Source: a virus. From it: a stretch of 64,000 nucleotides of DNA. The stretch spans positions 15,925 to 79,924 of IMG/VR virus record IMGVR_UViG_3300047476_001812; one strand, 5' to 3'. The notes under the pieces are model-generated. The model saw nothing but the letters and a program-made list of their open reading frames with translations, searched no databases and had not been told where the DNA came from. Both the position numbers and the translations under genes were made by a program. Shown in pieces: positions 16,303-51,984 of the stretch. Position 1 is the stretch's first letter. The number at the start of each line of letters is the position of its first letter.

Positions 16303-18729
16303 CTACTTCACAACGTAAGCTTCGTTGTAACTTGGATGTCCTACGTTATTAAATCTTGTGTGAAGATGAACCGTAATTTCATCTCCTAATTTAATAGGTG
16401 GCGTGTCCTTAACTGGGACTACACCAATGCTATAGCCATTGGACTTAGCAATGAAGTAATGCTTGCCGTCATTACCAATGCCTGACTCAATCTTCATGAC
16501 AATAGCCTCACCTTTGAAGACTATTTCACGAAAATCTGAATATAGCCGTCCTACTATATTCAGTTTGTCAATTTTGAGAGTCTTAAGTTGTTCACATATC
16601 TGTTCTATACCTAATAGAAAACAGATATTAGTTGAGATGCCTACCCTGTCCTCATGCTCCTTTGCTTGAGGATTGGGAATCCCCGTTTTGTTGTTCCGGT
16701 GTTTGACATCCCAAAAGGCAGCCACAGCCATCATCCTCTGTGTAGGGGGTAAATGATTAAGTATTCCCTCATAGTATCTGCAGATATCTTTTTGAGAAGA
16801 TAACCTACGCTCTTTAATAATTCTGGGAACTCTCTTACCTGGATTATCTTCTTCCCACTTGCGCTGCTCTAATCCAGCAGCATACATGGCAGATGAGTAT
16901 TCGGAAGACACGACTTCTGCCCTCTCAATCCATTTCTTACTAGGATTGAGATGTGAGAAAAGAATGTTAAAAGGTCTGAGATTGGTAGCCTTAAGTTCTG
17001 GGTAAACCCAAAACTTATTTATTTCAGCTACAAGCAGTCCTACGGTATCATTAGGACGTGATGACATCTGGGATGACATATAGCAGTCGTCATTTTTGAC
17101 CTGCTTCAACCAATCAACTCTTTCAGACTTGAGAGCATTACCGATATCATCTAGCAACTTCCTGTTAGGTGGTGTAGCACCTTTGAGGGAGTCTACTGCC
17201 GCTTGCAGCTGCGGCACTAACTGAAATACAAAGTCCTCACGTTTACAAGCCCAGGATTTGGCTATGTAGTATGTGATAAGACCAGTCAAGTTTTCCATTG
17301 ACTTAACCAGGATTTGCCCTAGAGTCCCTTCAATGGGAATCTTCTTAGGTTTTAACCCTGCTTGGTCTAAGTCAGGTTCACCGAAGTTCTTGACTGCCTG
17401 AGCTACGTTAGGTAGAGTTGATGCAGGTAGCCACATAAGGAAATCCCCATCTGTGTCACGCCCCAGTTTCATTAAGGTATTGCAGTTACCTACAATAATC
17501 CCCTCCATCTGCTCCCATTTAGGCAAGACTTTATTTGTCCATACCTTAATATCATATTTCCATCTACAAGGATAGGGGAATACGATTACCTCTTCACCGT
17601 CAGGAAGTCCTGGGATATAACAGCAGTCATCTGGCAACTCCTCGTCTGGCATTACCATAGAGGAGTTAAATTTCATCCCACCAGATGTAGCTATCTCGCG
17701 CCACCGTCGGGATAGCATTCCCATAGTTGCCTTGATAACCCAAGGGTGGGTAGACAACTGACCGTGTACGTCAGACTTTAAAATCTGACTTAACCGAGAT
17801 TCACTAACCTCACTAAACTCCTCGCTTTCATCCCCTTTCCGCAGGAGATACGCTAACAATTTCTGAGGATTGTTGACTAAGATATTTAACTCCTGTGCTC
17901 TCATTTGCGCTACGGGAACTATATCTTTCTGTACACAATCCCAAGGAAGGAACTGTACTACTGAGTATGAAAGATTGGACTTACGGAAGTCCCACCCCAT
18001 TGCATACCGTTCAATAATCTCGGTATCAGTCTCTTCGACCTCAATAAGTCTGGACTTTCTAGACGGAGATTTAAACACCACACCAAAAGCCAATTTAGGA
18101 AGTGTATACTCCCCAGGTTTAACTTTATTGCCTTTGAAACAGGACGTAGGTAAAACAAGGTCATACTTACCTTTCTTAAACCCCACTGCAATTGTACCCT
18201 TTGCACACCAATCAGGGTACATATTGAAAGCCCTAAACTGGAATGGATTGAATATGGAATCCACAAACTCCATAGCAAACTTCTCAGAGCATTTCCCGTG
18301 GCAATCCCCAGTCCTATATTTCTTGGACTTGGCATCACCGTCATTAACAACTAAGAGTTTGATGGCAATATCCTTAATCAACTTACATTCAGTAGTCAGG
18401 TTAGAACCGTAGTTGGCAGCATTCATATTGCTACCAAAGAATCGAGTAAAGCAATTAAGTTCTGAGGTAGAATAGATTGCTTTACCTTCTTTCCTAGAGC
18501 CTGAACCACCAACTAATACATAGTCTTCAAAGCCTTTGTCAAGAACTTCAGAGATGTATTCTAAGTCAGGATTTTCATCAGCTAATAAACTACCCACATC
18601 ACCGATAGCAAACTTAACGTCAGGGAATAGATGCCCCAACATCGTATTGTGATATGTGCTTTGGCAATGCTCTGGTAGCCACTGTTGACTAACTAGGTCG
18701 TATTGCCTTAGAATAAGCTTAGATGGCAT
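16303..18729 (-). CDS. single-subunit two-barrel RNA polymerase, YonO / cellular RdRP (QDE-1)-like
   Basis: Ordered motifs GDCHGKCS, PFQFR...AKGT, LVLPTSCFKG, VIVFPYPC, catalytic GRDTDGDF, LTGLIT, QAAVDSLKG parallel the cellular RdRP motifs DGxGxIS, FQIR..KG, RNP, DxDGD, AVDxxKxG. Confidence 0.85.
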   Translation of the reverse strand: MPSKLILRQYDLVSQQWLPEHCQSTYHNTMLGHLFPDVKFAIGDVGSLLADENPDLEYISEVLDKGFEDYVLVGGSGSRKEGKAIYSTSELNCFTRFFGSNMNAANYGSNLTTECKLIKDIAIKLLVVNDGDAKSKKYRTGDCHGKCSEKFAMEFVDSIFNPFQFRAFNMYPDWCAKGTIAVGFKKGKYDLVLPTSCFKGNKVKPGEYTLPKLAFGVVFKSPSRKSRLIEVEETDTEIIERYAMGWDFRKSNLSYSVVQFLPWDCVQKDIVPVAQMRAQELNILVNNPQKLLAYLLRKGDESEEFSEVSESRLSQILKSDVHGQLSTHPWVIKATMGMLSRRWREIATSGGMKFNSSMVMPDEELPDDCCYIPGLPDGEEVIVFPYPCRWKYDIKVWTNKVLPKWEQMEGIIVGNCNTLMKLGRDTDGDFLMWLPASTLPNVAQAVKNFGEPDLDQAGLKPKKIPIEGTLGQILVKSMENLTGLITYYIAKSWACKREDFVFQLVPQLQAAVDSLKGATPPNRKLLDDIGNALKSERVDWLKQVKNDDCYMSSQMSSRPNDTVGLLVAEINKFWVYPELKATNLRPFNILFSHLNPSKKWIERAEVVSSEYSSAMYAAGLEQRKWEEDNPGKRVPRIIKERRLSSQKDICRYYEGILNHLPPTQRMMAVAAFWDVKHRNNKTGIPNPQAKEHEDRVGISTNICFLLGIEQICEQLKTLKIDKLNIVGRLYSDFREIVFKGEAIVMKIESGIGNDGKHYFIAKSNGYSIGVVPVKDTPPIKLGDEITVHLHTRFNNVGHPSYNEAYVVK

Positions 18730-19305: not shown

Positions 19306-19607
19306 TAACAAGAAACTCCCTTTCTGTGTACAAAAAGCTTCTCATTAATTTTAAACTACAGTCGTTTAAATGGAAACATTTCGCGAGATATTTTCTGTCA
19401 ATTCCCTCGTCGCTATCATTAACTACAAGTACAAAAATAGGTGCGTAGCACCCCATAAAAAAACTCTTCACTCCTAATCCCAAAAGAATACTAACTCCGA
19501 AGGAACTAAAACTACGACTAGGGAGCGTAGCGACCCATAAAAACTTTCTTTAGTTTAAACCTGAGTTATGTTATTATTTAAAGCAAGCAAAATAAACTAA
19601 GTTTACC

Positions 19608-32382: not shown

Positions 32383-32745
32383 AACTTTAACTTCTGTTTA
32401 TTTTGCTATTGGTTATTATAACCTGCAAGGTAACAAAAGAAAAGGGGCATGGTAGCCCCTAAATTTTATTTAATACACTTAAACTACATCAAACTAAATA
32501 GGGGCGTAGCCCCCATGTTTCAAACTTCACAAATAATTAGGCGTTAGCCTTGCCCCCTATTCTTAGTATAAAAACACTAGGAATAGGGGGCTTCCAGTCA
32601 ATTACCTGCCTGAACCGCGTTCCATAAGAAACTCCATTTATTGCTAATACTTCAATTCTAATGGGGCAATCGCCCCTGTACCACTGGGAAAAGTGGGGAG
32701 GATAATCCCCAGTGGTAGTCATCAGGTCAGGCTAGGGAACACCAC

Positions 32746-33636
32746 CTAACTTGCTGCAATGATATCACGTAATTGTGATACTGACAACCCTGCAAGTAGA
32801 ATATTTTCAATTACTTGCTGCATTATTTTTTCAGCATTGCGCTTGTCAGTCGCCTTGACAATTACTTGAAAATCAGGGATGGATTTACCAACACCAATAA
32901 TCCACTGTTTGCAGCGTCTAGCATTGGATTTATAGCCATCAGCCATCATTTGTCTAACTTGAGAGTCCGTAGCTGGGATATGTTCAATGAGTTCTGGCGG
33001 CTGCTCAAGCTCAACTAAGGGAGGAGCAACGTCGTCCAAGGTTAAGCCATATTGGGGAACAGGAACGGCTAACTGAGGCGTTAGCCGTTCACAAGTTGCC
33101 AAATAATTGTCAATAAACTTCTGAGTACGTTGAGACTCAGGGCAACGGTCGAATAAATACTTGGCTTGGTCAATAGTTTCACACTTAGCAAAAGACTGGG
33201 GTTGGCGTGGGTCAAATCTGCGGAAAACAGATTTAGCTACTTTGGAAACGGTTTCTTTAGCTTGAGTTACTGCTGCTTTAATGGGCTTGACAAATTCGTA
33301 AGCAGTTTTAGCAAAGCCACGAAACTTCATCAAGGCATAGGCCGTTTGATTCTGAAACCACTTGGCTTTGATGCCACTGGCAGGATTACAGTTAGCAACT
33401 AAATACTCAAGACTAGAGAGTGACGTGATAGCAAATTCACACACCCGATGGTATGTGTTCTTGGTATCCTTAAGCAAATACACCCCATCTAACTTTCGGT
33501 CAGAAGGAACATACTTAGAGTAATCCGCCCAATATAATCGAGCAATGAAAGTGCCGATAGGGCATTCGGCAAACTGGTAACGACGTGATTCTTTGAGGCA
33601 GGTTAATGTTAATTCGGGCTTAATAGATACTGACAT
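32746..33636 (-). CDS. hypothetical protein
   Basis: 296-aa ORF, GAGG RBS, motif C at 33650. Confidence 0.7.
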   Translation of the reverse strand: MSVSIKPELTLTCLKESRRYQFAECPIGTFIARLYWADYSKYVPSDRKLDGVYLLKDTKNTYHRVCEFAITSLSSLEYLVANCNPASGIKAKWFQNQTAYALMKFRGFAKTAYEFVKPIKAAVTQAKETVSKVAKSVFRRFDPRQPQSFAKCETIDQAKYLFDRCPESQRTQKFIDNYLATCERLTPQLAVPVPQYGLTLDDVAPPLVELEQPPELIEHIPATDSQVRQMMADGYKSNARRCKQWIIGVGKSIPDFQVIVKATDKRNAEKIMQQVIENILLAGLSVSQLRDIIAAS

Positions 33637-33820
33637 GAGATTTTCCTCTGTTTATTTTGCTAATAAATTGAACTGAACATTGAACTGAACACGGTCGTTG
33701 TAGGGGCTATCTAGAATTACCTAAAGTGCGTCCACTTAAACTACAACTACAAAAAAAATAGAACGCGTAGCGCACATAAAAAATACCCAATGGATTAAAC
33801 CAATGGGTAAAAATTGAGCA

Positions 33821-34294
33821 TTAAGCTGCTGCTAAAAGATTACGACGACGAACTCCAATTCCTTCACATTCAATGTAATCAAGGGGAACGATATAACAAA
33901 CTTCACCGCGCCGGACAAAGAAGTTAAAATCGTCGGAGTTTGTTCGGTTTTTCAAAAGGTTGTTTAGACCTGCCAGGGGAATGAGTACGCTATCGAAAGT
34001 TTTTATGTCAATCCACAAGATATGGGTTACTTCCTTGTGGAATGGCATTTCGAGATATAATCCACGAGTGGATTTATACTTTTGAAAGTACAAATTCTCA
34101 ATGCCTTTAGTGGAAGCCTTAATCAAAATCGTTACACTTTTAATCTCACTATTTTTCCAGAAAACCCATCGGAAGACATTAGCTTCAAGCTGGGTTAGGT
34201 TCAGGGTATCAACAGACTTAAAAGCCCATTGAGAAAAGATATTGCAAGCTAATTTGCTGATTTCAACTGTTGTGTAAGCCATGATAAGCTCCAA
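33821..34294 (-). CDS. hypothetical protein (class A cassette)
   Basis: ORF between a class A motif and a terminator hairpin; ATG at 34282 may be the true start. Confidence 0.65.
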   Translation of the reverse strand: MELIMAYTTVEISKLACNIFSQWAFKSVDTLNLTQLEANVFRWVFWKNSEIKSVTILIKASTKGIENLYFQKYKSTRGLYLEMPFHKEVTHILWIDIKTFDSVLIPLAGLNNLLKNRTNSDDFNFFVRRGEVCYIVPLDYIECEGIGVRRRNLLAAA

Positions 34295-34360
34295 TCAAAT
34301 AAAACTACAAACAAAAAAAAGGGAGCGTAGCTCCCCATAAAAACCTTCTTTCGATTAAGC

Positions 34361-34645
34361 CTAGATAAAGAAATTCCCTTCACGCTTTAATTTTTCTATC
34401 AAGTTTTCATCTTTTAAAGGATGAACTTCAATTTCAAAGCCCAAAGCCGAGGATATTTTCTCATATTCTAATTTTCCATTTACGGAAAATTTTTTTGTCT
34501 TAAACCTACCAAAACACGGATTACCGGAATGGAAATCCGTAAAGTAATAAGTCATTTCTTCTGGTAACGACTCTTCATTCAGTAAATTCATTACATTCCG
34601 GTAAACTTCGGATGTTTGAAGCAAGTCTTTATTTAAGTTGGTCAT
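34361..34645 (-). CDS. hypothetical protein
   Basis: 94-aa ORF; hairpin motif at 34675-34696. Confidence 0.65.
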   Translation of the reverse strand: MTNLNKDLLQTSEVYRNVMNLLNEESLPEEMTYYFTDFHSGNPCFGRFKTKKFSVNGKLEYEKISSALGFEIEVHPLKDENLIEKLKREGNFFI

Positions 34646-34720
34646 TTTCTTTTTCTCCGATTAGTTAATTTCCACCAAAAGTAATTAGGCGTTAGCCTTG
34701 TACTTGCTAACGCCAACCAA

Positions 34721-35440
34721 TTAAACCTTGCTTTCTGCAATAAGCCAATTAATGGCTTTTACAATGCTGTTTCCGTGACAGTCTAAGGGTTCACAGAAAC
34801 AGATTAATCTGACATTGACACCTGACTTAACAAGCAAAGCAATACGTTTTAACTCATTCCAAACTGAGTTTTGGGCGTCAGGTTCACGCCATGCAATTTG
34901 CATCTGCTTCCAAAGCCATCTGTGATACAAGTCACAAACAGTTTTTCTGGTATGTTCACCACCCATAGGGTATGGATTCCCTAAAACACTAGGTCTACCA
35001 ATGTAAATATCGGTATAACCAAGCTCAGGAGAAAGTGTTTTCTTATTGACAACTTTGATGTTGCCAACCTTGAAAGTTTGAATCACTTTTGTTTTGGGAA
35101 CACGCTTGATATTTTCAGCAGTCCCTTTGCTAAATCCGTCCCAAATAGCTAAACCAAAGTCAGCTTGAGAACACATAAACTTATCTCTGTCAGTATAACT
35201 GCCATCAACTTTAACTGTACAAAAGCCAGCATTATTTCTTGGCTTTTGATAAGCATGAAAAACAGTTACCGCTTTATAATCTTTGGACTTCAGATATTGC
35301 TGAACTAAGAGGTCAATTCCGGGAGCATCTCCAACAAGAATCTCAAATCTTTGCTCCATGATTTTATCTAAAGACTTAATAACGTCTTTAGGTAAAACAG
35401 GTATTGAACGGCTGCCAGAAATTACTACTTTCATAGCCAA
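34721..35440 (-). CDS. SLOG/YspA-like domain fused to DUF4326
   Basis: KVVISGSRSI...LVGDAPGID...AIWDGFSKGT; IYIGRPSVLGNPY...LICFCEPLDCHG. Confidence 0.8.
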   Translation of the reverse strand: MAMKVVISGSRSIPVLPKDVIKSLDKIMEQRFEILVGDAPGIDLLVQQYLKSKDYKAVTVFHAYQKPRNNAGFCTVKVDGSYTDRDKFMCSQADFGLAIWDGFSKGTAENIKRVPKTKVIQTFKVGNIKVVNKKTLSPELGYTDIYIGRPSVLGNPYPMGGEHTRKTVCDLYHRWLWKQMQIAWREPDAQNSVWNELKRIALLVKSGVNVRLICFCEPLDCHGNSIVKAINWLIAESKV

Positions 35441-35515
35441 GTAAATAAACTACAACTAAATAATTTAGGAGCGTAGCGACCATAAAAAAAGGTGGCTTTT
35501 ACACCACCTAATAAT

Positions 35516-35710
35516 TTATAAATCGTCTATCGTTTCTGCCATTACAGGCTCGTTTAAGCCTGCGGGTTCGTCAAAACGAGGTTCATTTTCCCACTCCTCG
35601 TCTATGGACTTTACTGATAGTCTATACTCCAAGAATATAGACAGTAAATCTTGAGAATCCTTGAGGAATTTCTCTTCAAGAAATTCGTTAAAATTAAAGT
35701 TAAGGTTCAT
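35516..35710 (-). CDS. small acidic protein
   Basis: Cassette between class A motifs. Confidence 0.55.
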   Translation of the reverse strand: MNLNFNFNEFLEEKFLKDSQDLLSIFLEYRLSVKSIDEEWENEPRFDEPAGLNEPVMAETIDDL

Positions 35711-35796
35711 AATAGACCCCAAATTAAACTACAACTAACTAATAGGAGCGTAGCGACCATAAAAAAACCGTCAGCATTTAAGCCAACGGATAAACT

Positions 35797-36228
35797 CTAA
35801 ATTTGAACTATTACTGCATTTGGGCAGTGAGTTCGTATCAAGTTGCCGACTACATTCCAACCCCCACCAGCTAAACCACATCCCATTTTATAGGGAAGAT
35901 ATGGGGTTAACCCTAACTCAATGGATTTAGTGTGAAGTTTATTGAGGCAAACCGTCAAAGCATCATAATCAGTTTGACGTTTACCAATCCCATAGCCATT
36001 TTGACCTGCCATGTTGCAAATATATAAACCAGGATTGACCTTTACAAACTGCACCATTCCAAGGAGGAATTTACCCTCCTTGCAATACTTGGAATAGGAG
36101 GTAAAGCAAACTGGGTATTTTTCTCGCAGGGATTTAGCTAACCCCGCACCCATCACGCCCTTGCAATTAACTTGATGGCAAATAATGCCAGATTCAATTG
36201 TTAACAAATTACCTTTGATTAATTCCAT
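35797..36228 (-). CDS. macro domain protein (ADP-ribose binding/hydrolase)
   Basis: IKGNLL, ICHQVNCKGVMGAGLA, PYKMGCGLAGGGW. Confidence 0.92.
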   Translation of the reverse strand: MELIKGNLLTIESGIICHQVNCKGVMGAGLAKSLREKYPVCFTSYSKYCKEGKFLLGMVQFVKVNPGLYICNMAGQNGYGIGKRQTDYDALTVCLNKLHTKSIELGLTPYLPYKMGCGLAGGGWNVVGNLIRTHCPNAVIVQI

Positions 36229-36288
36229 GCCAATAAACCACCATAAACTACACCTATTTTGCAGGAGCGTAGCGACTCATAAAAATCT

Positions 36289-36510
36289 TTATTGTTTTAA
36301 ATTTTTGTTCAAAGCTTCTGCCAATTTAATGGCTTTGGCTTTAGTTAAACCAACTTTAATGTTAGTTAATTTACCATTAAGTTTCCAGATAACAGACCAG
36401 TATGTGTCATTGTTTATCAGCATTTGGACAGCATGAAAACTGTTTTCAGATAACAATTTTCTAGCGTTGTTAAATTCAACTACAGCAGCCTGAGTTATTT
36501 CTTTAGACAT
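36289..36510 (-). CDS. hypothetical protein
   Basis: 73-aa ORF; hairpin motif at 36523-36544. Confidence 0.6.
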   Translation of the reverse strand: MSKEITQAAVVEFNNARKLLSENSFHAVQMLINNDTYWSVIWKLNGKLTNIKVGLTKAKAIKLAEALNKNLKQ

Positions 36511-36560
36511 ATACTTAACACTTCACTACTTATAAGGCGTTAGCCCTGTACTTTGTATGC

Positions 36561-36803
36561 TTACCAATCAGGATAATCTGTGTTGTCAAGATTAATCCGT
36601 TCTTCTTCTAATTTTTGCTTGAGATAATTAGCCAAGTCTAACACTTCTTCATAAGCGTCTTGTAAAGCACTTCTGTTGTTGAAAGGTTGTAGTGGAGTAC
36701 CGTATTTTTGAATGCCTATCTGTTTCCGGTACAAGATGTCTGCGGCAACCAGATTGGCTATGTGGGGAAGGTTGTTAGGGACTGGATTAGGCAATGGTTG
36801 CAT
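36561..36803 (-). CDS. small all-alpha NTP pyrophosphatase-like (MazG-like) phage protein
   Basis: RKQIGIQKYGTPL...ALQDAYEEVLDLANYL. Confidence 0.6.
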   Translation of the reverse strand: MQPLPNPVPNNLPHIANLVAADILYRKQIGIQKYGTPLQPFNNRSALQDAYEEVLDLANYLKQKLEEERINLDNTDYPDW

Positions 36804-37827
36804 AAAATTTTGTAGTGGTTTTAGATTATCCCTTTAATTTTCCTTGTTAAAGCCTCTTGGATTTGGATTAATAACCAAATACCCCAGAAAGATATTAAAG
36901 GCATTTAAAACACAAAAATAGAGGCAAATCAGAGGACGTGCGGCGGAAAGCTTATCCCCAGGAAAAGGCAAAGGCGTAGACCAAAGAAGGAAATTCTGTG
37001 GTGGGAAAGCAAGGGTAAACCCAGTACAGAAGGTTTTCTAGCATTGTGTACCCTCTAGCCCTCTAACCTCTGGTTTTCTAACAGCCTGTTTTTCTAATAG
37101 CTTACATACCCTAACAGCCTGTTTTAACAAAGCTAATTTAAACTTTCTTGCTGGTTTAAAATTCTTTTGGTTTTTAGGTGAAAGCTTTCCGTGCGCGCAC
37201 CAGGCGATAGCCTGTCCATATTCGGAGGTGTGTTGTAAATAGGACACCTGTTCAAATAAAGTAGTCTTCTTATATCGTGTGTAATTTAATTAATATAATA
37301 TATTAACTAATATATATATAATATAAGAGCAGCGTTTATTTGCTTGATGGTAGCAATAGAGACGTTGGGTAAAAAGGTATTTTGATAGGGTTGAAATAGG
37401 CATTTAAAAGTTATTTTGTATTAATTGAAAGCATTGTTGTTAAAGGGTTTTGGTTTATTTTAATTGTTAACAAATAGTAGGAAATAAGTATATCTTTGTA
37501 CGGATTACTGAGAAGGTATGTAGAATGACTGAGTTCACTATGATATTGTACGATTGAGCATATACTATAAGTGGTTAATGTGATTATAGTATTGAGTGAT
37601 AACCGTACTACTGATGACTAAAGCTTGATTATTGCGCCATTTGCTATAAGTGACAGAGTATCCGCTGAGTCTGTACGTTTGAGCATATACGGACTAGCCT
37701 TTCAAAGAGCTTATTGTCTGTAGTTTGTGGTATAATTGAATAGTCAATAAAAAAAAATCCCCTCGCAAACCTGGTACTGGTAATACCGAAGATTTCAGGG
37801 GAAGTAACCTATAGGGCAGGTCACAAT

Positions 37828-38202
37828 ATGATTATTCTAAATGGTTTTAACCACCGCGTCTATCCTGAGCGGAAATGTATTCCTGGACTTATTTATTTAG
37901 TCAAATGCCATGAATACTACAAAATTGGACAAACAGGTGGACATATCAACGCAAGAATTTCGCAAATACAAACTGGAAACCCATACGCTGTAGAGCTTAT
38001 TGACCAGTTCTCTTCATACAAGCCAAGAAAAGATGAGGACTTTCTGCACCGTTTATTTGATAACGTCAGGGTAAGGGGTGAGTGGTTTGAAATTCCTTCT
38101 ATTTATATTGAAAGCAGAGAAATTTGGTTTAAACCATTTGAAAATATGTCGGTTAAGCAGATTCAAGATGAGATAGAATCCAAGATTCTAGCTGGCAAGT
38201 AA
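37828..38202 (+). CDS. T5orf172/GIY-YIG family protein
   Basis: GLIYLVK...YYKIGQT...RISQIQTGNP...LHRLF..RVRGEWF; TGGTATAAT extended -10 at ~37728-37736. Confidence 0.88.
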   Translation: MIILNGFNHRVYPERKCIPGLIYLVKCHEYYKIGQTGGHINARISQIQTGNPYAVELIDQFSSYKPRKDEDFLHRLFDNVRVRGEWFEIPSIYIESREIWFKPFENMSVKQIQDEIESKILAGK

Positions 38203-38482
38203 TCCTGTCTACGTAAAACACAAACCAATTACCCACTAGCTAATCACCTTGGTTTAGAGTTAGTGGATATTACCTTATCTAAAGCTCTCTTATAGATTAC
38301 ACTGTCGTATTACTCCGTACAAATTGAAGTATCCAGCAATTAGTCTATTGTAATTCCCCTTAATTTAATGTCATCTGAAAGACTAAGTGTATTAATATTG
38401 CAAACGTAGTTGTAGTCTTGGTTTCAGGGGTTTTGCAAAGCTAACAAAAGAAAAGGAGGGACAATGCCCTCCGAGTGAAAAT

Positions 38483-38644
38483 TTATTTTGAGATAACTAT
38501 TGAAACAGTCAAACTTGCCTGCGATATCGCAAGCAGATTTACCCCACTTAGCTTGTTGAACTCCCTTGTCACCAAGGAACTCAAGAATCTTGCTTTGCCG
38601 TTGCTGTAAACAACAGCTTTAGTCCTGACTTTTCTGAGTTTCAT
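38483..38644 (-). CDS. small basic protein
   Basis: ATG 38644 just downstream of a class A motif; terminator hairpin at ~38455-38472. Confidence 0.55.
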   Translation of the reverse strand: MKLRKVRTKAVVYSNGKARFLSSLVTREFNKLSGVNLLAISQASLTVSIVISK

Positions 38645-38724
38645 GATAAAATCCCATTGATTACGCCACAAACAGGAAGCGTAGCGACCATAAAAAAAGG
38701 AGGGACTAAGCCCTCCCAAAATAG

Positions 38725-38916
38725 TTAATATTCAATAAAGTCGTCCTCAATGGGCTCATCGAATGAGGACTTTACCTCCTCAAGGGCTTCTCTCAACATT
38801 TCCATATTCATATCTTCGTACCCCTCCACATCATAAAATTCAGCAAGAAGGAGTAACCCCTCCTTACCAGAGGAGTGGATTCTGTCCAGAGCGGACAGTC
38901 TAAATGTGATTCTCAT
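38725..38916 (-). CDS. small acidic protein
   Basis: ATG 38916 just downstream of the class A motif at 38932. Confidence 0.6.
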   Translation of the reverse strand: MRITFRLSALDRIHSSGKEGLLLLAEFYDVEGYEDMNMEMLREALEEVKSSFDEPIEDDFIEY

Positions 38917-39000
38917 AACCAAACCTGAATTAACTACAACTATATATAGGGAGCGTAGCGACCATAAAAACAACTCTGCCAGAGCAGCAAGCTGCAAGAC

Positions 39001-39030
39001 TTGTCACTTAACCACAAAGTCTGCTATATT
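39001..39030 (+). promoter_or_regulatory. sigma70-type promoter for the putative ncRNA
   Basis: TTGTCA (39001-39006), 18-nt spacer, TGC-TATATT (39025-39030). Confidence 0.65.
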
Positions 39031-39036
39031 GTATTT

Positions 39037-39480
39037 ACTTGGTTGAACTAACTACGAGTGAGTAGACGCAAACCACCACGATGTAAGGCTCTTGAGGCTT
39101 TGAAGTGTAGAGCTAGTGAGGAACTGAGCTTGGTTAGCAGACGAAATGCCGGATAGAGTTCAGACTTGGTAAAACAGTCCTCTAAGCAATCGTGAGGACA
39201 CCGGGCTAAAGTTCTGCCTTACCTGGGAAACCGGGACTTGGTTGAGAGACCCTCAATTAAAGTAAAGAATTAGTTGGCAACTCTAAAGTTGTGATTGCAA
39301 GTTGGTTGTAAAACCTGATTACCTGTAATGTAAATCCCACCTGACTGTAAAACCAAATAATCCCCATTGTTAAAGGATTCTATCTTTTAACCAAGTCTTC
39401 TCTAATCCTGTTTGGTTTACTGCGTAGAGCCAAAGCTAAAGAGGTTAAGAAAACTTACTTGGTTTATAAAAGATGGAAGT
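39037..39480 (+). ncRNA. unidentified structured non-coding RNA (~440 nt)
   Basis: No ORF of 60 aa or more; many stems (GTAAGGC/GCCTTAC, GTCCTC/GAGGAC, CCTGG-GAAA-CCGGG, long 39378-39478 hairpin); upstream promoter. Confidence 0.6.
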
Positions 39481-39548
39481 TTTGTCGTGTTTACCTATAA
39501 CCCGAAGGCAATAAAAGAAAAAGAGAGCCGAAGCCCTCCTAATCAAAA

Positions 39549-39794
39549 TTAGTAACTGTAAGTACCTACGCACTCACCGTCCAGGTAGACATCTACTACA
39601 TAGCTTTTGTCCCCTATGCGGGTTTTTCTAGTTTTGATATCAATGTTGGCGTTGTCAGGTATTTCCCCAACAATACCTTTAATCTTGTCTATCTGCTCCC
39701 AATTCTGGGAATACCCCTGTAGCTGTTTCGCCCACATGGGACGATTGTCCTGACGACCTTCGCTTTCAAACACACCGTTATCTAAATCAAACAT
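39549..39794 (-). CDS. hypothetical protein (class A cassette)
   Basis: GAGG RBS; followed by the GGAGGGC-TTCG-GCTCTC-T-run terminator (~39512-39539). Confidence 0.65.
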   Translation of the reverse strand: MFDLDNGVFESEGRQDNRPMWAKQLQGYSQNWEQIDKIKGIVGEIPDNANIDIKTRKTRIGDKSYVVDVYLDGECVGTYSY

Positions 39795-39943
39795 AACCAA
39801 ATCCTCAATACGTTAACTACAACAAAACTAAAGGGGCGTAGCCCCCATAAAAAACCAACATTAGACAAAGCTAACATCAAAACCTATCAGGCGTTAGCCT
39901 TGTCCATGCGAAGGACAAACGGGGGAATTTAACCCCCAGGAAG

Positions 39944-40366
39944 CTATAACTGCAAGGCTGCAATCAGCTCAGACTTTCGCATACTACCGTATTTGGGTAT
40001 AGCCCTTTCCTTGGCTATAATTTTGAGTTCTTTGACAGTTAAAGAGTTGTAATCTAAGTCCTTGCACTTAGATTGCTCAAATTGAGCATCTAAGGTCTCC
40101 CAAAGCTTGTCACCAGGGTTTGGAAGCTTAGGAGTCATTTGTTCTTTAGCCAATTCAATTACATTTATTTCAGGTTCAGACTCTTGGGAGTCTAAAGTAA
40201 CTTGAACCCAAGAAATGTCGGCAACTTTTAAAGTCTGTTGCTGAGTTCCAATTAATTGGTGTCCAGCGTTATTCCAGATTGTTTCCATATCCAAAATAAA
40301 GTCTGCGGTCATGCAAGCAAACAATGCAACTATTAAAACCAAGCAGAAAAAGACTGAGTAATCCAT
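39944..40366 (-). CDS. membrane-anchored protein with C-terminal Rho-N (HeH) domain
   Basis: N-terminal hydrophobic helix; LTVKELKIIAKERAIPKYGSMRKSELIAAL. Confidence 0.75.
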   Translation of the reverse strand: MDYSVFFCLVLIVALFACMTADFILDMETIWNNAGHQLIGTQQQTLKVADISWVQVTLDSQESEPEINVIELAKEQMTPKLPNPGDKLWETLDAQFEQSKCKDLDYNSLTVKELKIIAKERAIPKYGSMRKSELIAALQL

Positions 40367-40405
40367 ATCTTTTATAAACCGTTATTTTGCTAACTACAAT
40401 TACTA

Positions 40406-41567
40406 TAGGAATCCTAGTTGATTTTTGAAAAAGATTCAGAGAAAATACGTATGAGAATATAAGTGTAAAAGTAGACAATGATAAACCAGCATCTATCAAA
40501 TGTATCATACCCACCAAAAGTGGCAACTGCAATTGCCGAACTACAAGACTTCATAGCAGGTTGTCGTGATGCTCGTGAAGCCAGAAAAGCCTTGGCGGTG
40601 AAATTGGTTTACCAAGATTACTTATACGAAGAGATCCAGACAATTTTAGATGTGTCTTTAGGTTCGATAACTGGTTGGAAGCAAGCTTACGAGCAAAACG
40701 GACTTAATGGCTTAAAGTTAAACCATAAAGGGCGAAAAAGCTATTTGAGTAGCGAACAACGAGAACAAGTGTTAAGTTGGTTGCAAACCAAGAACTGCTG
40801 GGAACTGGGGGAATTGGAGTACAAATTAGCCTTTGAATATGATGTGGTTTATGAGTCAAAGCAAAGTTACTATGATTTATTCGATGCTGCTGACATAGCT
40901 TGGAAGAAGACCACAAAGTTAAATCCCAAAGCCAACCCAGAGGCTGTGGCAGAAAAAAAAAAGAGATTGAAACACTACTGGCAAGCAAGCGTTCCGAAAT
41001 AGAAACCGGAAAATTGAGGGTATTATTAATTGATGAGTGTCATTTAATGTGGGGAGACTTAAGTGGCTATGTCTGGGGGAGAACTGATACAGAAATCACA
41101 GTTCCAGTGGTGAATGAGCGCAATAAACAAACATATTATGGGGCAGTTGATTATCTTGAAGGAAAATTGCTGCTTAGAGCTTACGATAAGGGGAACTCAG
41201 AAAATACAATTGATTATCTGCGATATTTACTAAATGAGTCTGGCGAGCAACAATTGTTACTTTTTTGGGATGGTGCGACCTATCATCGTTCCAAAGAAAT
41301 TCAAGAGTTTTTGGATGAAGTTAATCAAGGTTTGACAATTGACCAATGGAAAATACGCTGCGTCCGTTTTGCACCCAATTGTCCAGAACAAAATCCTATT
41401 GAGGATATTTGGTTACAAGCCAAAACATGGGTGCGGCGTTTTTGTGCCTTAATTCCAACATTCTCACATTTGAAATGGATGTTTGAATGGTTTATTCGAC
41501 ACACTACCTTTGATTTTGCCACTCTTCAGATGTACGGATTTTTTTCAAAAATCAAATAGGAGTCCTA
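40406..41567 (+). mobile_element. IS630-family insertion sequence
   Basis: Terminal inverted repeats TAGGA.TCCTA.TTGATTTTTGAAAAA; TA duplication at 40404-40405 and 41568-41569 (CTAG target). Confidence 0.93.
40478..41559 (+). CDS. IS630 transposase, two ORFs joined by a -1 frameshift at the A10 run (40953-40962)
   Basis: HTH ORF 40478..41002; DDE ORF with LIDECH, WDGATYH, PEQNPIEDIW. Confidence 0.9.
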
Positions 41568-41614
41568 TAGACAGGGCGTAGCCCACATAAAAAAAGGGGC
41601 AATTGCCCCTGTAC

Positions 41615-42178
41615 TTATGACTTAGAAAGTCTCATAGCCTCCTCGTTAGGAGAATACTTGAAACCGCAAGATTCAAGTAACTCACGTAGGTTCAGATTAA
41701 TGCGAGTGTCGTAATAGAAGGCGATATTGCCTTCTATAGAGTTGATTGCCATTTCAATGAAGGTCTTTAGCTTGAGGTCTAAGTTATCTTGAGCTAACCA
41801 CCATTTATGGTCATTGAGGTCGTCCCCACTAGCAGGGACTTCCTGTCCATTCACTTTAATAGAGAGCAGTTGCTCTCCTGTTAGTGGGCAAACCTCAAGA
41901 TGGACTTTGATGGATTCACCCAGATTAACCTTGCCTTGGTTGGCAAGGGTTCTTTCGCAAATTGCATCCAAGACCTTTGGAGGAATTTCCTCCACAAAGA
42001 ATTCACATCTATTTAGCCGATTGATACTCCAGCGCTGCTGGAATTTGCAGCGGTGGTGTTGTAAATAGGCACACAATTTGTCCCCTAAATAGCTGGGGAC
42101 GCATACCATGTAAGCAGGTATGCGAGATGAACATTTCCACTCAGGGATATACAAAACCTCAAATCTTGGGTCAGACAT
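41615..42178 (-). CDS. hypothetical protein (class A cassette)
   Basis: 187-aa ORF flanked by a class A motif and a GGGGCAATTGCCCC-T-run terminator. Confidence 0.7.
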   Translation of the reverse strand: MSDPRFEVLYIPEWKCSSRIPAYMVCVPSYLGDKLCAYLQHHRCKFQQRWSINRLNRCEFFVEEIPPKVLDAICERTLANQGKVNLGESIKVHLEVCPLTGEQLLSIKVNGQEVPASGDDLNDHKWWLAQDNLDLKLKTFIEMAINSIEGNIAFYYDTRINLNLRELLESCGFKYSPNEEAMRLSKS

Positions 42179-42262
42179 AACAAAACCTGGTTAACTACGC
42201 CAATTGGTTGGGAGCGTAGCGAACATAAAAAAAAGGGAATGGATAAACCACTCCCTAATAAG

Positions 42263-42541
42263 TTAGAACCCAACCAATGGGTCATACGACCCAATCATAA
42301 GTTCATTCCATAAGTCGTACTCAGCCTGAGTTAGTTTGAACGTCCTGCGAAGTTCAAGATATTGAAGAATATCTTGAAGAGTTACCCATCTACTCTCAAG
42401 AATCTCTGAACATTGTTGAATGGAAAAAGGAACGTGATATTCAGGATGTTCTTGGTCTGGAAGAATATCCAGGTCAACGAGTGACTGCATAACGGCGGCT
42501 AAGTCACTTTCTGATAGTGTAGAAAGAAATTCCGTAAACAT
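42263..42541 (-). CDS. small acidic protein (class A cassette)
   Basis: ATG 42541 follows AAGGTG; class A motif at 42557. Confidence 0.6.
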   Translation of the reverse strand: MFTEFLSTLSESDLAAVMQSLVDLDILPDQEHPEYHVPFSIQQCSEILESRWVTLQDILQYLELRRTFKLTQAEYDLWNELMIGSYDPLVGF

Positions 42542-42671
42542 ATTAAGCACCTTGTCAACTACACCAATTGGTTGGGAGCGTAGCGACCCATAAAAACATT
42601 TATTGGTTAAAAATTGAGGGCATCACCCCCTTTTTTCTTTTGGTTAAAATAATATATATAGATTAGGTTTG

Positions 42672-48420: not shown

Positions 48421-51400
48421 ATGGCTTTTATTGATGCAGATTTTCCCATTCTTTTAGGACAAGAACTGTATCGCCCTGATGCTAAATACATTATGAAATA
48501 CATTACTCGACCACGGGTAAAACATGATTTCATGAAGCAGCCGGGTGAATAGTCGCCCCGTAGAGTTGTGAAACTCTAATGAAAATTCCGTGAACTGCTG
48601 GAAACCTCTCACTCTTTTTTATCTGTCAAAAGAGAAGGCTTAAAACACTACAACGCAACTGGTAACAGTAATCGTGATAGTTTGAAAAGTTTTAAGTATC
48701 GGGCAATCAGCATCCAAGGGACTCCGGAAGGAGTTCAAGGTTCAACGACTAGGGTACGGAGTCTAGAACAGACGGTAAAACCCCAAGAGCGCGGAACTAC
48801 TGAACCTTGAAAACTAAATACTAAGCAATTAAGTGGAAGCTAAAAGTTTTCTGACTGTATATCTAGCGAGTTTTCTTTGCAAAACAATTGAAGGGTTACA
48901 ACCGTACATCCAGTCAAGACCTTTGATGCCATGAAAAGAAAGCCTGTAAATGCTTTTGTTAGGACGGACTGAACCGGTGGTTATACCATTTCTGTGTAGA
49001 CAATCAGCAACACTTTCCAGTAATTCTTTATTCCCTGAAAGCGTACTGCTGGTGTCATTCTTGGAAATAGTGCCGTCACCATCCCACATCCCCCTAAGCA
49101 GATGACATTCTAATTCAGAATCTATTTTTGGTAGAGAGACAATATTGATTTTAGGTGTTGACAATCCTAAATTTAAAAGGTCTTGGCAGAGAACAGTGGA
49201 GTTTAGATTTAAGTTAACGACATCATGCACTTGACAGCTGTTTTCTTGGGGTTTACTGATTAGCAATTCACCCTCAAAATCCATAGCTTCTGCTATTTCT
49301 CGAAGTATGTAAGAATCAGATTCAGTTAAGCTTATTCTTGCTCTGTGCAACTCTTTGGTAATGTGTCCATCTGTAATCATCAAACCAAGAGCATAGGCTT
49401 TAACCTCTGAATCTATGTTTTGAAAAAACCTTTCATTGAAAAAGATTTTACGGTTGCTGACATTAGGAACACCTTTTACCCCAACGGTTATTCCATGTTT
49501 TTCCGCAAAACTTTTAACACCCAGCTTTCTGCGATAATAACCGGCGTTGTTTTTACCAATTCCAAATTGTTCCCCTATTTGTAAATCGGTAAATTCATTT
49601 GTAAGGTTGTCAAAATCGGCAAAAGAAAGTTCTGTGATTTCCATGCTTAGTATTTGTGATTATTCAGTAGAAGATATAGTCTGTAAGTGCCAATGACAAA
49701 GGCATCACCGCTATCCAGGCGTTAGCCGTAATCTAATTATAAACCTAATTGGATTATATAGCAACCTATAGGACAACATTCAGTTAGACAGATACGCATT
49801 CTGGCAAACCCCTGAAGCTGGCTTCAATAAAGCTGCACGTCAACGGGGTGCTACTCAGGTAATTGGTGTAAACAACTCTCGGAATATCACCAAAGATAAA
49901 GTGATATTAACTCTCGAAGAGTATACTGGACCAGCCGACCCAACCAATCCTGAAAGTCCATCTACTTTCCAGATTCCTATCAAAGACATCATGACTGCCC
50001 AGCGCCAACTATGGCAATACGGGCAACGTGCGTTTCACGATAGTATTGGTAGTTCTAACCTTCTCCAGGACTTCCGTAAATGGGAAGACCGTCTATATAC
50101 CAACGAGTTATTGAAGACAACTTTTATTTACAATCCACGGGGTATTGCCGATGGTGCAACGGTCAACCTAACTCAAGCTGACTTTGGATTTAACGGACAG
50201 CCACCTCAATTTAATGTCAATGACTTAGAGACCGTAGTAGCAGATTTGTTTACCCGTAACTGCCCACAGTTTGAAGATGGTAACTATGTTTGCGCTTGTT
50301 CTGCTATCTTTATCAAACACTTGAGAAGTGATAGCAAGTTCCTAGAGATTACCCGATACTACGCTAGTAACCCCAGCTTAGTTCCGGCATCTGCCATGAC
50401 TAACGGTGCTGCTGGTAGTTTTGCTCCTCCCCAAATAAACTTCAATGCCGCTCCTTGGCAATCTGGTTTAACTGGTGGACAAGCAAACGATGTAATGGGT
50501 CAAGTAATGATGCCTAAAAATAATGTAGTTAGACTCACAAGAATTTCTTGCAAATCTAACTAAGCCTAGTGGGCATCTAAAACGGGATGAATTGCTGGAA
50601 ACCCGCCAAGCCAAGGGCAATCAGCAGCCAAGCCAAGAGAAATCCGTAGAAGTATCTTGGAAGGTTCAACGACTAATGGGTGAACAGGATAAGTAATAAG
50701 CCCAACACGAGCGTCCCGGCATCAGAACCTTGACAACCAAATACTTGCTTCATTTAACTTCCTGGGAATTGCTATTGTGCAGTTGGAGTAAAGCCACTCA
50801 ATTACGGGTTTAGCTTTATCAACGCCGTAACACCCAAAAGTGTAGAGAGGTTTTCCGTTATTGACCGACTCTTTTACTTTTGACGGATAGCCTAGACGAG
50901 ACTCCACAAGTTCTGCAAAACCATAGATTAAATCTTTAGTCGCTGACTGCAAGATAAAACGGTTTTTATCAAAACTTATATGCCCGTCTCCATCAAAAAA
51001 TCCTCTCAAGTAATGTCGGGTTAATTCAGTAGACAAGTTACGAACAAGTAAACGCTCTGATTTTCTCCCAAAACCCAAAGCCACCATTTGTTCAATTAAA
51101 TCTCTGCTGTATATTTCAAGTCTTTCAGTTGGAGATTTGCCTTCCCTGTGGATTTGTTTTATGTAACGGTCACATTCTGAAGCACCAGCAACAGACTTAC
51201 AGATTGTGTGCAAAACAATTGAGTCTGGGTGTTTTAGTTCAATCGTAAACTTTCTATGTTTTATGGTGTTACATATAGAACCATCTGCCGTCAAAAGTCC
51301 TAATGCGTAAGCCTTAATCTCGGAGTCAATACTTTGAAAATAAGTTCTATCAATCTGAAGCTTATCAAAGTATTCACCTTCACCTTGATTAAGAACCCTG

Positions 51401-51984
51401 CCAGATTTACGAGATATGCGCTTGCCAGTCTTTTCACTAAAAGACTTAATGCCAAGCTCTTTACGGGCTATGTGGACAGTAGAAACGGCACAGCCATACT
51501 GCTTGGCAATAGCAATATCCGACAACTCAGAAGTTAAATTATCGAGTGTTTGTTGGTCAAATAAAACGGTTCTTTGGAACTGCATAGGTTTTGATGTGTG
51601 ATATAGTCTGACCTCAATCAATGGAAAAGATTGAGAACTAGAAGGTAAACTACTTCTAGGATAACATAAGTGATGGGTTTTGTTTTTGACGGCGTAAGGT
51701 TCTTTGCCTCTAACAACTTACCTAAAGCACAGGTTACACTTAATTACACCAACTCTGTTAACACTACTAATGCACCTAATGGTAATGCAGTTAGAACTGG
51801 AGAACTGGGAATCTTCTATGGGGCTGAAGCTATTGGGGTTGGATTAGGTGGTAATGGACCAGAAATTCTACTTAATAACAACGACGATTTTCAACGTTTT
51901 GTGATAGCGATTTGGAGATTATATGGAAGCTGGGAATTACTAGACGCTAGATTTGTAACTACTTGCCGTTCTTTCACAAACTAA
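48421..51984 (+). CDS. major capsid protein, spliced: 48421-48546 + 49772-50515 + 51673-51984 (393 aa)
   Basis: Exons join in frame as ...HDFMKQPG|DNIQLDRY... and ...GQVMMP|MGFVFDGVRF...; HK97-fold-like motifs (YVCACS..FIKHLRSD, DGVRFF, DDFQR); follows portal and scaffold. Confidence 0.85.
48547..49771 (+). ncRNA. group I intron 1 in the capsid gene
   Basis: 5' splice after U with P1 GGGU/GCCC; P GAACTGCTGGAAA, Q AATCAGCA, R GTTCAACGACTA, S AAGATATAGTC; P3 TTCCGTG/CGCGGAA; P8 CTACTGAA/TTCAGTAG; terminal G at 49771. Confidence 0.92.
48829..49644 (-). CDS. LAGLIDADG homing endonuclease, antisense in the P8 loop of intron 1
   Basis: KAYALGLMITDGHI and HLLRGMWDGDGTI. Confidence 0.9.
   Translation of the reverse strand: MEITELSFADFDNLTNEFTDLQIGEQFGIGKNNAGYYRRKLGVKSFAEKHGITVGVKGVPNVSNRKIFFNERFFQNIDSEVKAYALGLMITDGHITKELHRARISLTESDSYILREIAEAMDFEGELLISKPQENSCQVHDVVNLNLNSTVLCQDLLNLGLSTPKINIVSLPKIDSELECHLLRGMWDGDGTISKNDTSSTLSGNKELLESVADCLHRNGITTGSVRPNKSIYRLSFHGIKGLDWMYGCNPSIVLQRKLARYTVRKLLAST
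50516..51672 (+). ncRNA. group I intron 2 in the capsid gene
   Basis: P1 AUGCCU/GGGCAU; P AATTGCTGGAAA, Q AATCAGCAG, R GTTCAACGACTA, S TGATATAGTC; P3 CGGGATG/CGTCCCG; terminal G at 51672. Confidence 0.92.
50722..51585 (-). CDS. LAGLIDADG homing endonuclease, antisense in the P8 loop of intron 2
   Basis: KAYALGLLTADGSI and HYLRGFFDGDGHI; ATG 51585 preferred over TTG 51621; related to the intron 1 enzyme. Confidence 0.9.
   Translation of the reverse strand: MQFQRTVLFDQQTLDNLTSELSDIAIAKQYGCAVSTVHIARKELGIKSFSEKTGKRISRKSGRVLNQGEGEYFDKLQIDRTYFQSIDSEIKAYALGLLTADGSICNTIKHRKFTIELKHPDSIVLHTICKSVAGASECDRYIKQIHREGKSPTERLEIYSRDLIEQMVALGFGRKSERLLVRNLSTELTRHYLRGFFDGDGHISFDKNRFILQSATKDLIYGFAELVESRLGYPSKVKESVNNGKPLYTFGCYGVDKAKPVIEWLYSNCTIAIPRKLNEASIWLSRF

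Follow-up and report, generated by a model that had tools for sequence, protein, structure and literature searches.

A probable gene for a large structured non-coding RNA in a freshwater cyanophage lineage

The + strand of the window, i.e. the whole stretch of 64,000 nucleotides of viral DNA analysed here, very probably contains a real and expressed gene for a structured non-coding RNA. The RNA is free of ORFs, has a length of about 460 nt and extends from 39037 to 39497, both ends being predicted. An earlier note on this DNA had proposed a new large ncRNA of a phage, and the proposal is supported by the presence of the stretch in RNA libraries, by covariation among homologues and by the lack of a match to any known family or mobile element. 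The window makes up the greater part of a 79.9-kb record from an uncultured virus, a near-identical relative of which (75 kb) is rated 99% complete; the gene belongs to a lineage of freshwater cyanophages whose genomes measure about 75-80 kb. The RNA forms an orphan family, although its general kind, that of large, ornate and phage-borne RNAs, is a known one. As the best explanation overall we tentatively propose a free-standing ncRNA gene whose product would act in trans as a scaffold or decoy.

The RNA gene, its promoter and its neighbourhood

The extent of the gene follows from several observations. Transcription is predicted to start near A39037; at the other end, conservation falls beyond 39497 in the homologues L003 and L015, and a search for a + strand terminator of the canonical type found none. 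The resulting length of about 460 nt replaces the figure of about 440 nt given earlier. The description of an ORF-free island was correct: no + strand ORF in the stretch exceeds 46 aa, those present are located in segments deleted or altered in other copies, and no conserved ORF spans 39037-39497. The strand is indicated by folding, since the z score of the single-sequence fold is -2.34 for + and +0.38 for -, and the consensus fold reaches -93.4 kcal/mol on + versus -57.8 on -. Each phage genome possesses one copy of the gene.

A host-type promoter lies upstream on the + strand (39001-39030), composed of TTGTCA (39001-39006), an 18-nt spacer, TG (39022-23) and TATATT (39025-30). This sigma70-type promoter with an extended -10 box is the best among seven promoter-like sites in 38400-40000, with 10 out of 12 matches. 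In L015, the most divergent homologue, the -35 box and the TGCTAT sequence are intact, although 8 of the 15 spacer bases before TG have changed; retained boxes around a diverged spacer are the pattern expected of a working promoter. Across the copies the -10 box reads TATATT, TATACT or TATGGT. The TTGTCA-18-TATATT promoter proposed in the earlier note is thus confirmed as the top site of its region, with boxes conserved in L015.

Small minus-strand gene cassettes surround the RNA, and nearly every other gene of the region is preceded by a different, phage-type promoter that consists of a T-run, a GC-TAC-GC hairpin and, 10-12 nt further on, GTAGTT. We counted about 14 copies of it on the - strand, in 19359-19515 and 32487-42562, most of them directly before small minus-strand genes; in the full layout ATGG stands between the T-run and the hairpin, and the T-run doubles as the U-tract of the preceding terminator. 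As the promoter of the RNA is of the host type, unlike the phage promoters found elsewhere, transcription of the RNA is expected to fall to the host RNA polymerase. The phage-type promoters are likely read by the predicted product of an ORF of 808 aa (16303-18729, - strand), which carries a DTDGD motif at residue 425. In the protein atlas it comes closest to clusters of RdRP-domain proteins (PF05183 in 46% of one), searches of PDB, Pfam and PHROG returned no sequence match, and it is probably a two-barrel RNA polymerase of the YonO or QDE-1 type.

The two genes that flank the RNA run opposite to it, and each has a promoter or terminator of its own. Three copies lack the downstream gene (39549-39800) but retain the RNA. 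Apart from one weak and uninformative PADLOC match each, the neighbouring proteins searched revealed no toxin or defence family; relatives of the flanking 83-aa gene, sought as an anchor, were not found. Two further neighbours carry recognizable domains. A 140-aa protein (39944-40366, - strand), which stays beside the RNA in every copy reaching that far, has at its end a Rho_N/SAP domain of the helix-extended-helix type, a motif that binds nucleic acids. Within the minus-strand cassette array, a plus-strand gene of 124 aa (37828-38202) encodes a MUG113 (T5orf172, GIY-YIG-like) domain and is possibly a free-standing homing endonuclease.

The relatives of two other genes indicate the type of phage. 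The sole cultured relative of the portal protein is that of Synechococcus phage S-EIVl (37.6% identity), and the closest relatives of an IS630 copy at about 40.4-41.6 kb, which are 71-96% identical, belong almost all to Nostocales and in a few cases to other cyanobacteria. These relationships suggest a freshwater cyanophage with a probably filamentous host; judged from such similarity, the host is probably a Nostocales cyanobacterium. At this site the relatives L009 and L010 lack the IS630 copy (about 40409-41567), and its two flanks are directly adjacent. An RNA library (run X4) yielded a contig of 1004 nt that contains the same IS, with 318 of 319 letters identical, between other flanks; hence a near-identical copy exists elsewhere in that lake sample, possibly in the host.

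In line with the transcript supposed in the earlier note, the stretch is present in RNA libraries of several studies. Words of it occur in sixteen public runs, ten of which are recorded as RNA, and all of which are freshwater, lake or wastewater samples. Contigs from three RNA runs, belonging to three studies, measure 221, 308 and 358 nt and cover 39057-39277, 39077-39384 and 39150-39499, respectively. These contigs attest presence in libraries and not strand, ends or level, with DNA carry-over being possible; they do not extend over the flanking genes, and they give no evidence of higher abundance. The contig that stops at 39499 is a weak hint to the 3' end.

Helices and their conservation

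Exact-word scans revealed nine further copies of the RNA, on four IMG/VR contigs and five metagenome contigs, all from uncultured relatives of the same phage. In those IMG/VR contigs that hold the portal gene, the portal proteins are 98-100% identical. Two other contigs, L014 and L017, shared chance 20-mers and were rejected as homologues. The RNA core (39036-39308, 273 nt) is 98-98.5% identical to the window, the capsid exons 96.8-98.4%, the portal region 90-92% and the genes flanking the RNA 77-89%. Because all ten copies belong to one narrow phage group, covariation rests on few events, mostly those of L015.

Covariation among the homologues, which the earlier note had named as a check, was found. 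For eight local helices with 50 pairs, all 400 out of 400 cells are paired, and five pairs have changed on both sides; none of 500 shuffles reaches the values for helix pairing or double changes, and pairing falls to 27-46% when the partner strand is slid. In three more helices the only changes tolerated are those compatible with G.U pairing, or deletions of the loop. Since G.U pairs can form in the + strand RNA alone, changes that keep them are valid on this strand only. The resulting model is many-armed: besides the hairpin at the 5' end it comprises at least seven other local hairpins and, probably, a helix that closes the molecule.

The 5' terminal hairpin (39036-39060, pairing 39036-41 with 39055-60) has a 13-nt loop that contains AACUAACUA; in L015 its changes either fall in the loop or turn a U.G into a C-G pair. 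It is followed by a CAC/GUG helix (39077-39107) around a hairpin formed by 39084-90 and 39096-102 with the loop CUUGA. In this region L015 shows three double-sided pair changes, one change from G.U to G-C and one from A-U to G.U. The same changes contradict the pairing of GTAAGGC (39083) with GCCTTAC (39216) that had been proposed earlier, as L015 alters the 5' word and 39216 is constant; inside the local hairpin the alterations are compensatory. The next hairpin (39110-39131) has the loop GAGGA, its 3' strand enters the second CUUGGU, and its pair 39114/39126 occurs as U-A, U.G and C-G.

A long irregular arm occupies 39151-39218. Its inner hairpin GUCCUC/GAGGAC (39177-82/39194-99) is supported by a change from C-G to U.G in four of eight copies, and the remaining variation in the arm falls entirely in predicted loops or bulges. 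For the third CUUGGU (39165-70), the predicted outer pairing is with ACCGGG (39200-05) or, in the consensus, 39162-70 with 39389-97 (AACCAAG). The two pairings are incompatible and score similarly, and the central arm is largely invariant. An earlier remark that mutually exclusive pairings might be allowed fits these two competing models.

Beyond the arm follows the GAAA-capped stem already described from the sequence (39222-39235). This 5-bp hairpin is present and the same in all copies, so that variation neither supports nor contradicts its structure. The adjacent 11-bp hairpin (39236-39263, loop AGACC), whose 5' strand is the fourth CUUGGU, has an invariant stem; its sole change, G to A at 39248, lies in the loop. 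A 6-bp hairpin with the loop CUAA follows (39277-39292). Five copies have G-C at its pair 39278/39291 and three, the window included, have C-G; one RNA-library contig shows both compensatory changes together.

The helix UUGGUU/AACCAA (39302-07/39351-56; element 39302-39356) closes a variable loop: in L003 and L015 its 3' strand has become AACUGA, with both new pairs being G.U, in L019 the stem is kept despite a loop deletion, and in L002 the loop has a 24-nt insertion. The 3' hairpin (39382-39474) has the base stem AACCAAGU/ACUUGGUU (39389-96/39457-64) and a dispensable interior. L003 and L015 differ in the base stem by four changes in the 5' strand and one in the 3' strand, all to G.U. Of the long 3' hairpin described earlier (39378-39478), the base stem is kept, but 52 nt of the interior are absent in four of the nine homologues (L002, L003, L004 and L015) and 21 nt in L006. 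The conserved 3' tail (39479-39494), predicted to pair with 39140-47 and 39062-69, is kept in all copies, even where the downstream DNA differs. Two changes keep this pairing, and one, in L002, breaks a pair; the closing helix is otherwise largely invariant. We consider it probable, with moderate confidence in the model, that the tail closes the molecule with the 5' part.

The word shared by many of these helices, CTTGGT in DNA, occurs on the + strand at 39038, 39129, 39165, 39237 and 39458, and its complement once (39390-95), in agreement with the counts of the earlier note. Elsewhere on the + strand there are 27 copies in 63.5 kb, i.e. 0.2 expected per 462 nt, which corresponds to an approximately 25-fold enrichment; a Poisson estimate for at least five copies is about 2e-6. 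The first copy (39038) is lost in L015. Words of the form R-S-Y-K-G-G-Y stand at exact 36-nt steps (39128, 39164, 39200, 39236 and 39272), this degenerate motif having been defined after viewing the data. The RNA shows no autocorrelation at lag 36, Tandem Repeats Finder returned no rows for it at score 30, and no pair of its segments is more similar than shuffles, i.e. no internal duplication was found.

Comparison with known RNA families

According to Rfam 15, the RNA matches nothing at the gathering score (whole window) or at E up to 10 (38850-39650); the only matches near it are two weak ones, both at the minus-strand terminator 39511-39577. A search of this kind does recover the two group I introns in the capsid gene, which serve as a positive control. 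These insertions lie within 48549-49771 and 50517-51672, with model matches at 48541-48797 and 50583-50718 (E = 8e-6 and 6e-8, both below the gathering score); the three capsid exon pieces are contiguous in L009 and L010, hence both introns are absent there.

The earlier note had been unable to match the sequence to tRNA, tmRNA, RNase P or intron signatures, and Rfam, ARAGORN and a comparison with rnpB lead to the same result. ARAGORN predicts no tRNA or tmRNA gene in the whole window. The model of RNase P type A (RF00010) has no match in 38850-39650 to E = 10, but scores 245-261 bits on rnpB of three Nostocales genomes. Likeness to rnpB itself was rejected, as the best local alignment of 19-23 is within the shuffle range (maximum 25-27). 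A 14-nt word, AGCAATCGTGAGGA (39184-39197), agrees with the RNase P RNA of three Nostocales genomes at 13 of 14 positions; this resemblance is probably due to chance. For group I introns (RF00028) there is no match in the RNA to E = 10, and an intron inside a host gene was discarded, given the opposite strand of the flanking genes and their own promoter or terminator.

Nor did the sequence collections searched yield relatives outside the phage group. Like Rfam and ARAGORN, blastn against 50,697 phage records gave no match to the RNA, and an exact 24-mer of it is absent from 185,579 species genomes. With a model of the RNA (R1), four Nostocales genomes and phage S-EIVl gave no match, nor did another 151 genomes of that order (best E = 0.48); BLAST against four host genomes returned chance matches only. 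The pattern of spaced CTTGGT words occurs at more than 119 loci in viral contigs, none of which matches model R1. In the collections searched, the RNA is confined to one phage group, and portal relatives at 46-90% identity exist; of those at 46-56%, several are encoded on contigs of 60-78 kb.

GOLLD and ROOL, with lengths of about 580 and 800, are often borne by phages or prophages. The phage RNA resembles them (RF01998, RF03087) as a large ornate ncRNA with many helices and GNRA loops and as an orphan class that emerges from comparative analysis. It differs in being shorter and not located beside tRNA genes, and it has a host-type promoter to itself although the phage elsewhere relies on phage promoters; their models match neither at the gathering score nor to E = 10, and there is no sequence match. 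Viral RNA candidates reported previously number 10,006 and have lengths of 29-151 nt (PMC10690425).

Three further families were compared. The CsrB/RsmZ sponges reiterate a short word, which is presented in hairpin loops, and the phage RNA likewise contains one short word five to six times. Unlike in the sponges, CUUGGU is predicted in helix strands and not in hairpin loops; cyanobacteria are not known to have CsrA. 6S RNA is an abundant and stable decoy for polymerase that is made by the host polymerase and forms a rod with a central bubble. A polymerase decoy would suit a phage with a second, RdRP-like polymerase, but the phage RNA is many-armed: its consensus shows at least eight separate helices and several branch points instead of a rod with a central bubble, and Rfam detects no 6S match.

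Type III antitoxin RNAs consist of units of 34-45 nt, and a 'pseudo-ToxI' decoy of phage is known. The phage RNA could in like manner neutralise a host nuclease, and the spacing of its words is 36 nt. In contrast to ToxI, it possesses no near-identical tandem units of 34-45 nt, no cognate toxin is located beside it or beside the host CTTGGT repeat array examined, and there is no related host array next to a toxin. As a separate observation, many cyanobacterial genomes contain tandem repeats of 35-36 nt with a C-run/G-run hairpin and the loop TTGGTAA, and the 14-nt filler varies by genome. One such array (L113:1489-1599) lies between genes for an epimerase and a CDP-alcohol phosphatidyltransferase. 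The idea that the RNA mimics an antitoxin of this kind was rejected, since the 36-nt host repeats with CCCTTGGTAAGGG hairpins are, at the one locus examined, intergenic and beside housekeeping genes.

Possible roles of the RNA

A stable scaffold or decoy that acts in trans is, in our estimation, a possible mechanism. According to this model, the host RNA polymerase would make the RNA from the sigma70-type promoter, and the RNA would be long-lived and act in trans. The word CUUGGU, paired with ACCAAG, ACCGGG or AACCAA, would build five or six helices and thereby may present several copies of one surface to a partner. The partner would most likely be an RNA-binding protein of host or phage, which is titrated or organised early in infection. 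CUUGGU is constant while its partner strands differ, which suggests selection on the word and not on pairing alone; this constancy, together with the reuse of the word in most helices, favours the scaffold or decoy. Against it stands the predicted location of CUUGGU in helices, unlike the loop words of classic sponge RNAs, and the neighbouring genes offer no clue to the partner protein.

Alternatively, exposed segments of the RNA might pair in trans with phage or host mRNAs and alter their stability or translation. Two segments are candidates. AACUAACUAC in the 5' loop is complementary to GUAGUU(A), which follows every phage-type promoter; GTAGTT stands behind about 14 hairpin promoters, and AACUAACUAC falls in a predicted loop and is kept in the otherwise divergent 5' part of L015. 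AAACCAAAU (39350-58) is complementary to the UUUGGUU that immediately precedes the start codon in each flanking gene, in agreement with TTTGGTTATG where the genes at 38916 and 39800 begin. Yet the complementarity amounts to just 6-9 nt. GTAGTT occurs about 0.6 times per kb outside promoters, so that chance would account for the single copy here, a TTGGT ahead of ATG is no general trait of the gene starts of this phage, and an ornate fold of 460 nt far exceeds the needs of seed pairing. A riboregulator of this type is in our view rather unlikely. We consider self-assembly improbable as well, in spite of the excess of CUUGGU over AACCAAGU (five versus one), which would let molecules pair with each other into RNA-only oligomers. 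Homo-oligomers without protein are formed by GOLLD, ROOL and OLE, with cryo-EM structures for GOLLD and ROOL (PMC12286853). The phage RNA is similarly large, ornate and phage-borne, five or six identical words compete in it for few partners, and the third CUUGGU has two incompatible pairings of similar score; but it is shorter (460 nt) than ROOL or GOLLD, matches neither of them in sequence or model, and has no tRNA genes nearby. That the RNA is an anti-defence decoy, i.e. a mimic of an RNA that is bound or cut by a host immune nuclease, such as a type III antitoxin, guide or bait RNA, likewise appears unlikely. With a host-type promoter such a decoy would be available from the start of infection, and the R-S-Y-K-G-G-Y words follow each other in exact 36-nt steps, a degenerate motif chosen post hoc. 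The decoy is opposed by the lack of a tandem repeat, an internal duplication or an Rfam antitoxin match, and by the lack of a related RNA in the host genomes searched; at the one locus examined, the neighbours of the host 36-nt repeats with CTTGGTAAG loops are housekeeping genes, not toxins.

Two further explanations are given very little weight. The RNA might be a ligand, a 6S-like regulator or a template of the phage's RdRP-like two-barrel polymerase, with short RNAs copied from AACUAC in the 5' loop. The ORF with the DTDGD motif that is nearest to RdRP-domain clusters (16303-18729, - strand) provides a candidate enzyme, AACUAC is the template sense of the GTAGTT promoter box, and QDE-1 of the same superfamily copies both DNA and RNA templates (PMC9508822). 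On the other hand, phage enzymes of the YonO type are DNA-dependent (PMC5467207), a single shared hexamer is within chance, and neither the GC-TAC-GC hairpin nor the 10-12-nt spacing is reproduced in the RNA, which makes this role highly improbable. Just as poor are the prospects of a DNA-level element (an origin, a packaging site or iterons bound by a protein) that is transcribed incidentally, or of the remnant of a decayed gene or mobile element. An ORF-free island with a 6-mer reiterated at regular steps would suit a DNA element, but the substitutions retain G.U pairs, which are those of the + strand RNA only, and the + strand is far superior to the - strand in the consensus fold. The RNA contains no tandem repeat, the cumulative GC skew has its minimum elsewhere, near 18-22 kb and away from the RNA locus, and searches of phage records, 155 cyanobacterial genomes and Rfam revealed nothing similar.

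Large structured ncRNAs without an assigned function are rarely met with, and new biology has repeatedly come from them. The RNA described here is a clean case of this kind, with a host-type promoter amid hairpin promoters, a core that evolves as slowly as the capsid gene, covariation and presence in lake RNA samples. If the RNA were instead a ligand of the RdRP-like polymerase, a phage would for the first time be seen to supply an RNA ligand to a polymerase of this class. Most of the helices are built from a single word pair, an unusual reuse that offers direct handles for mutagenesis.
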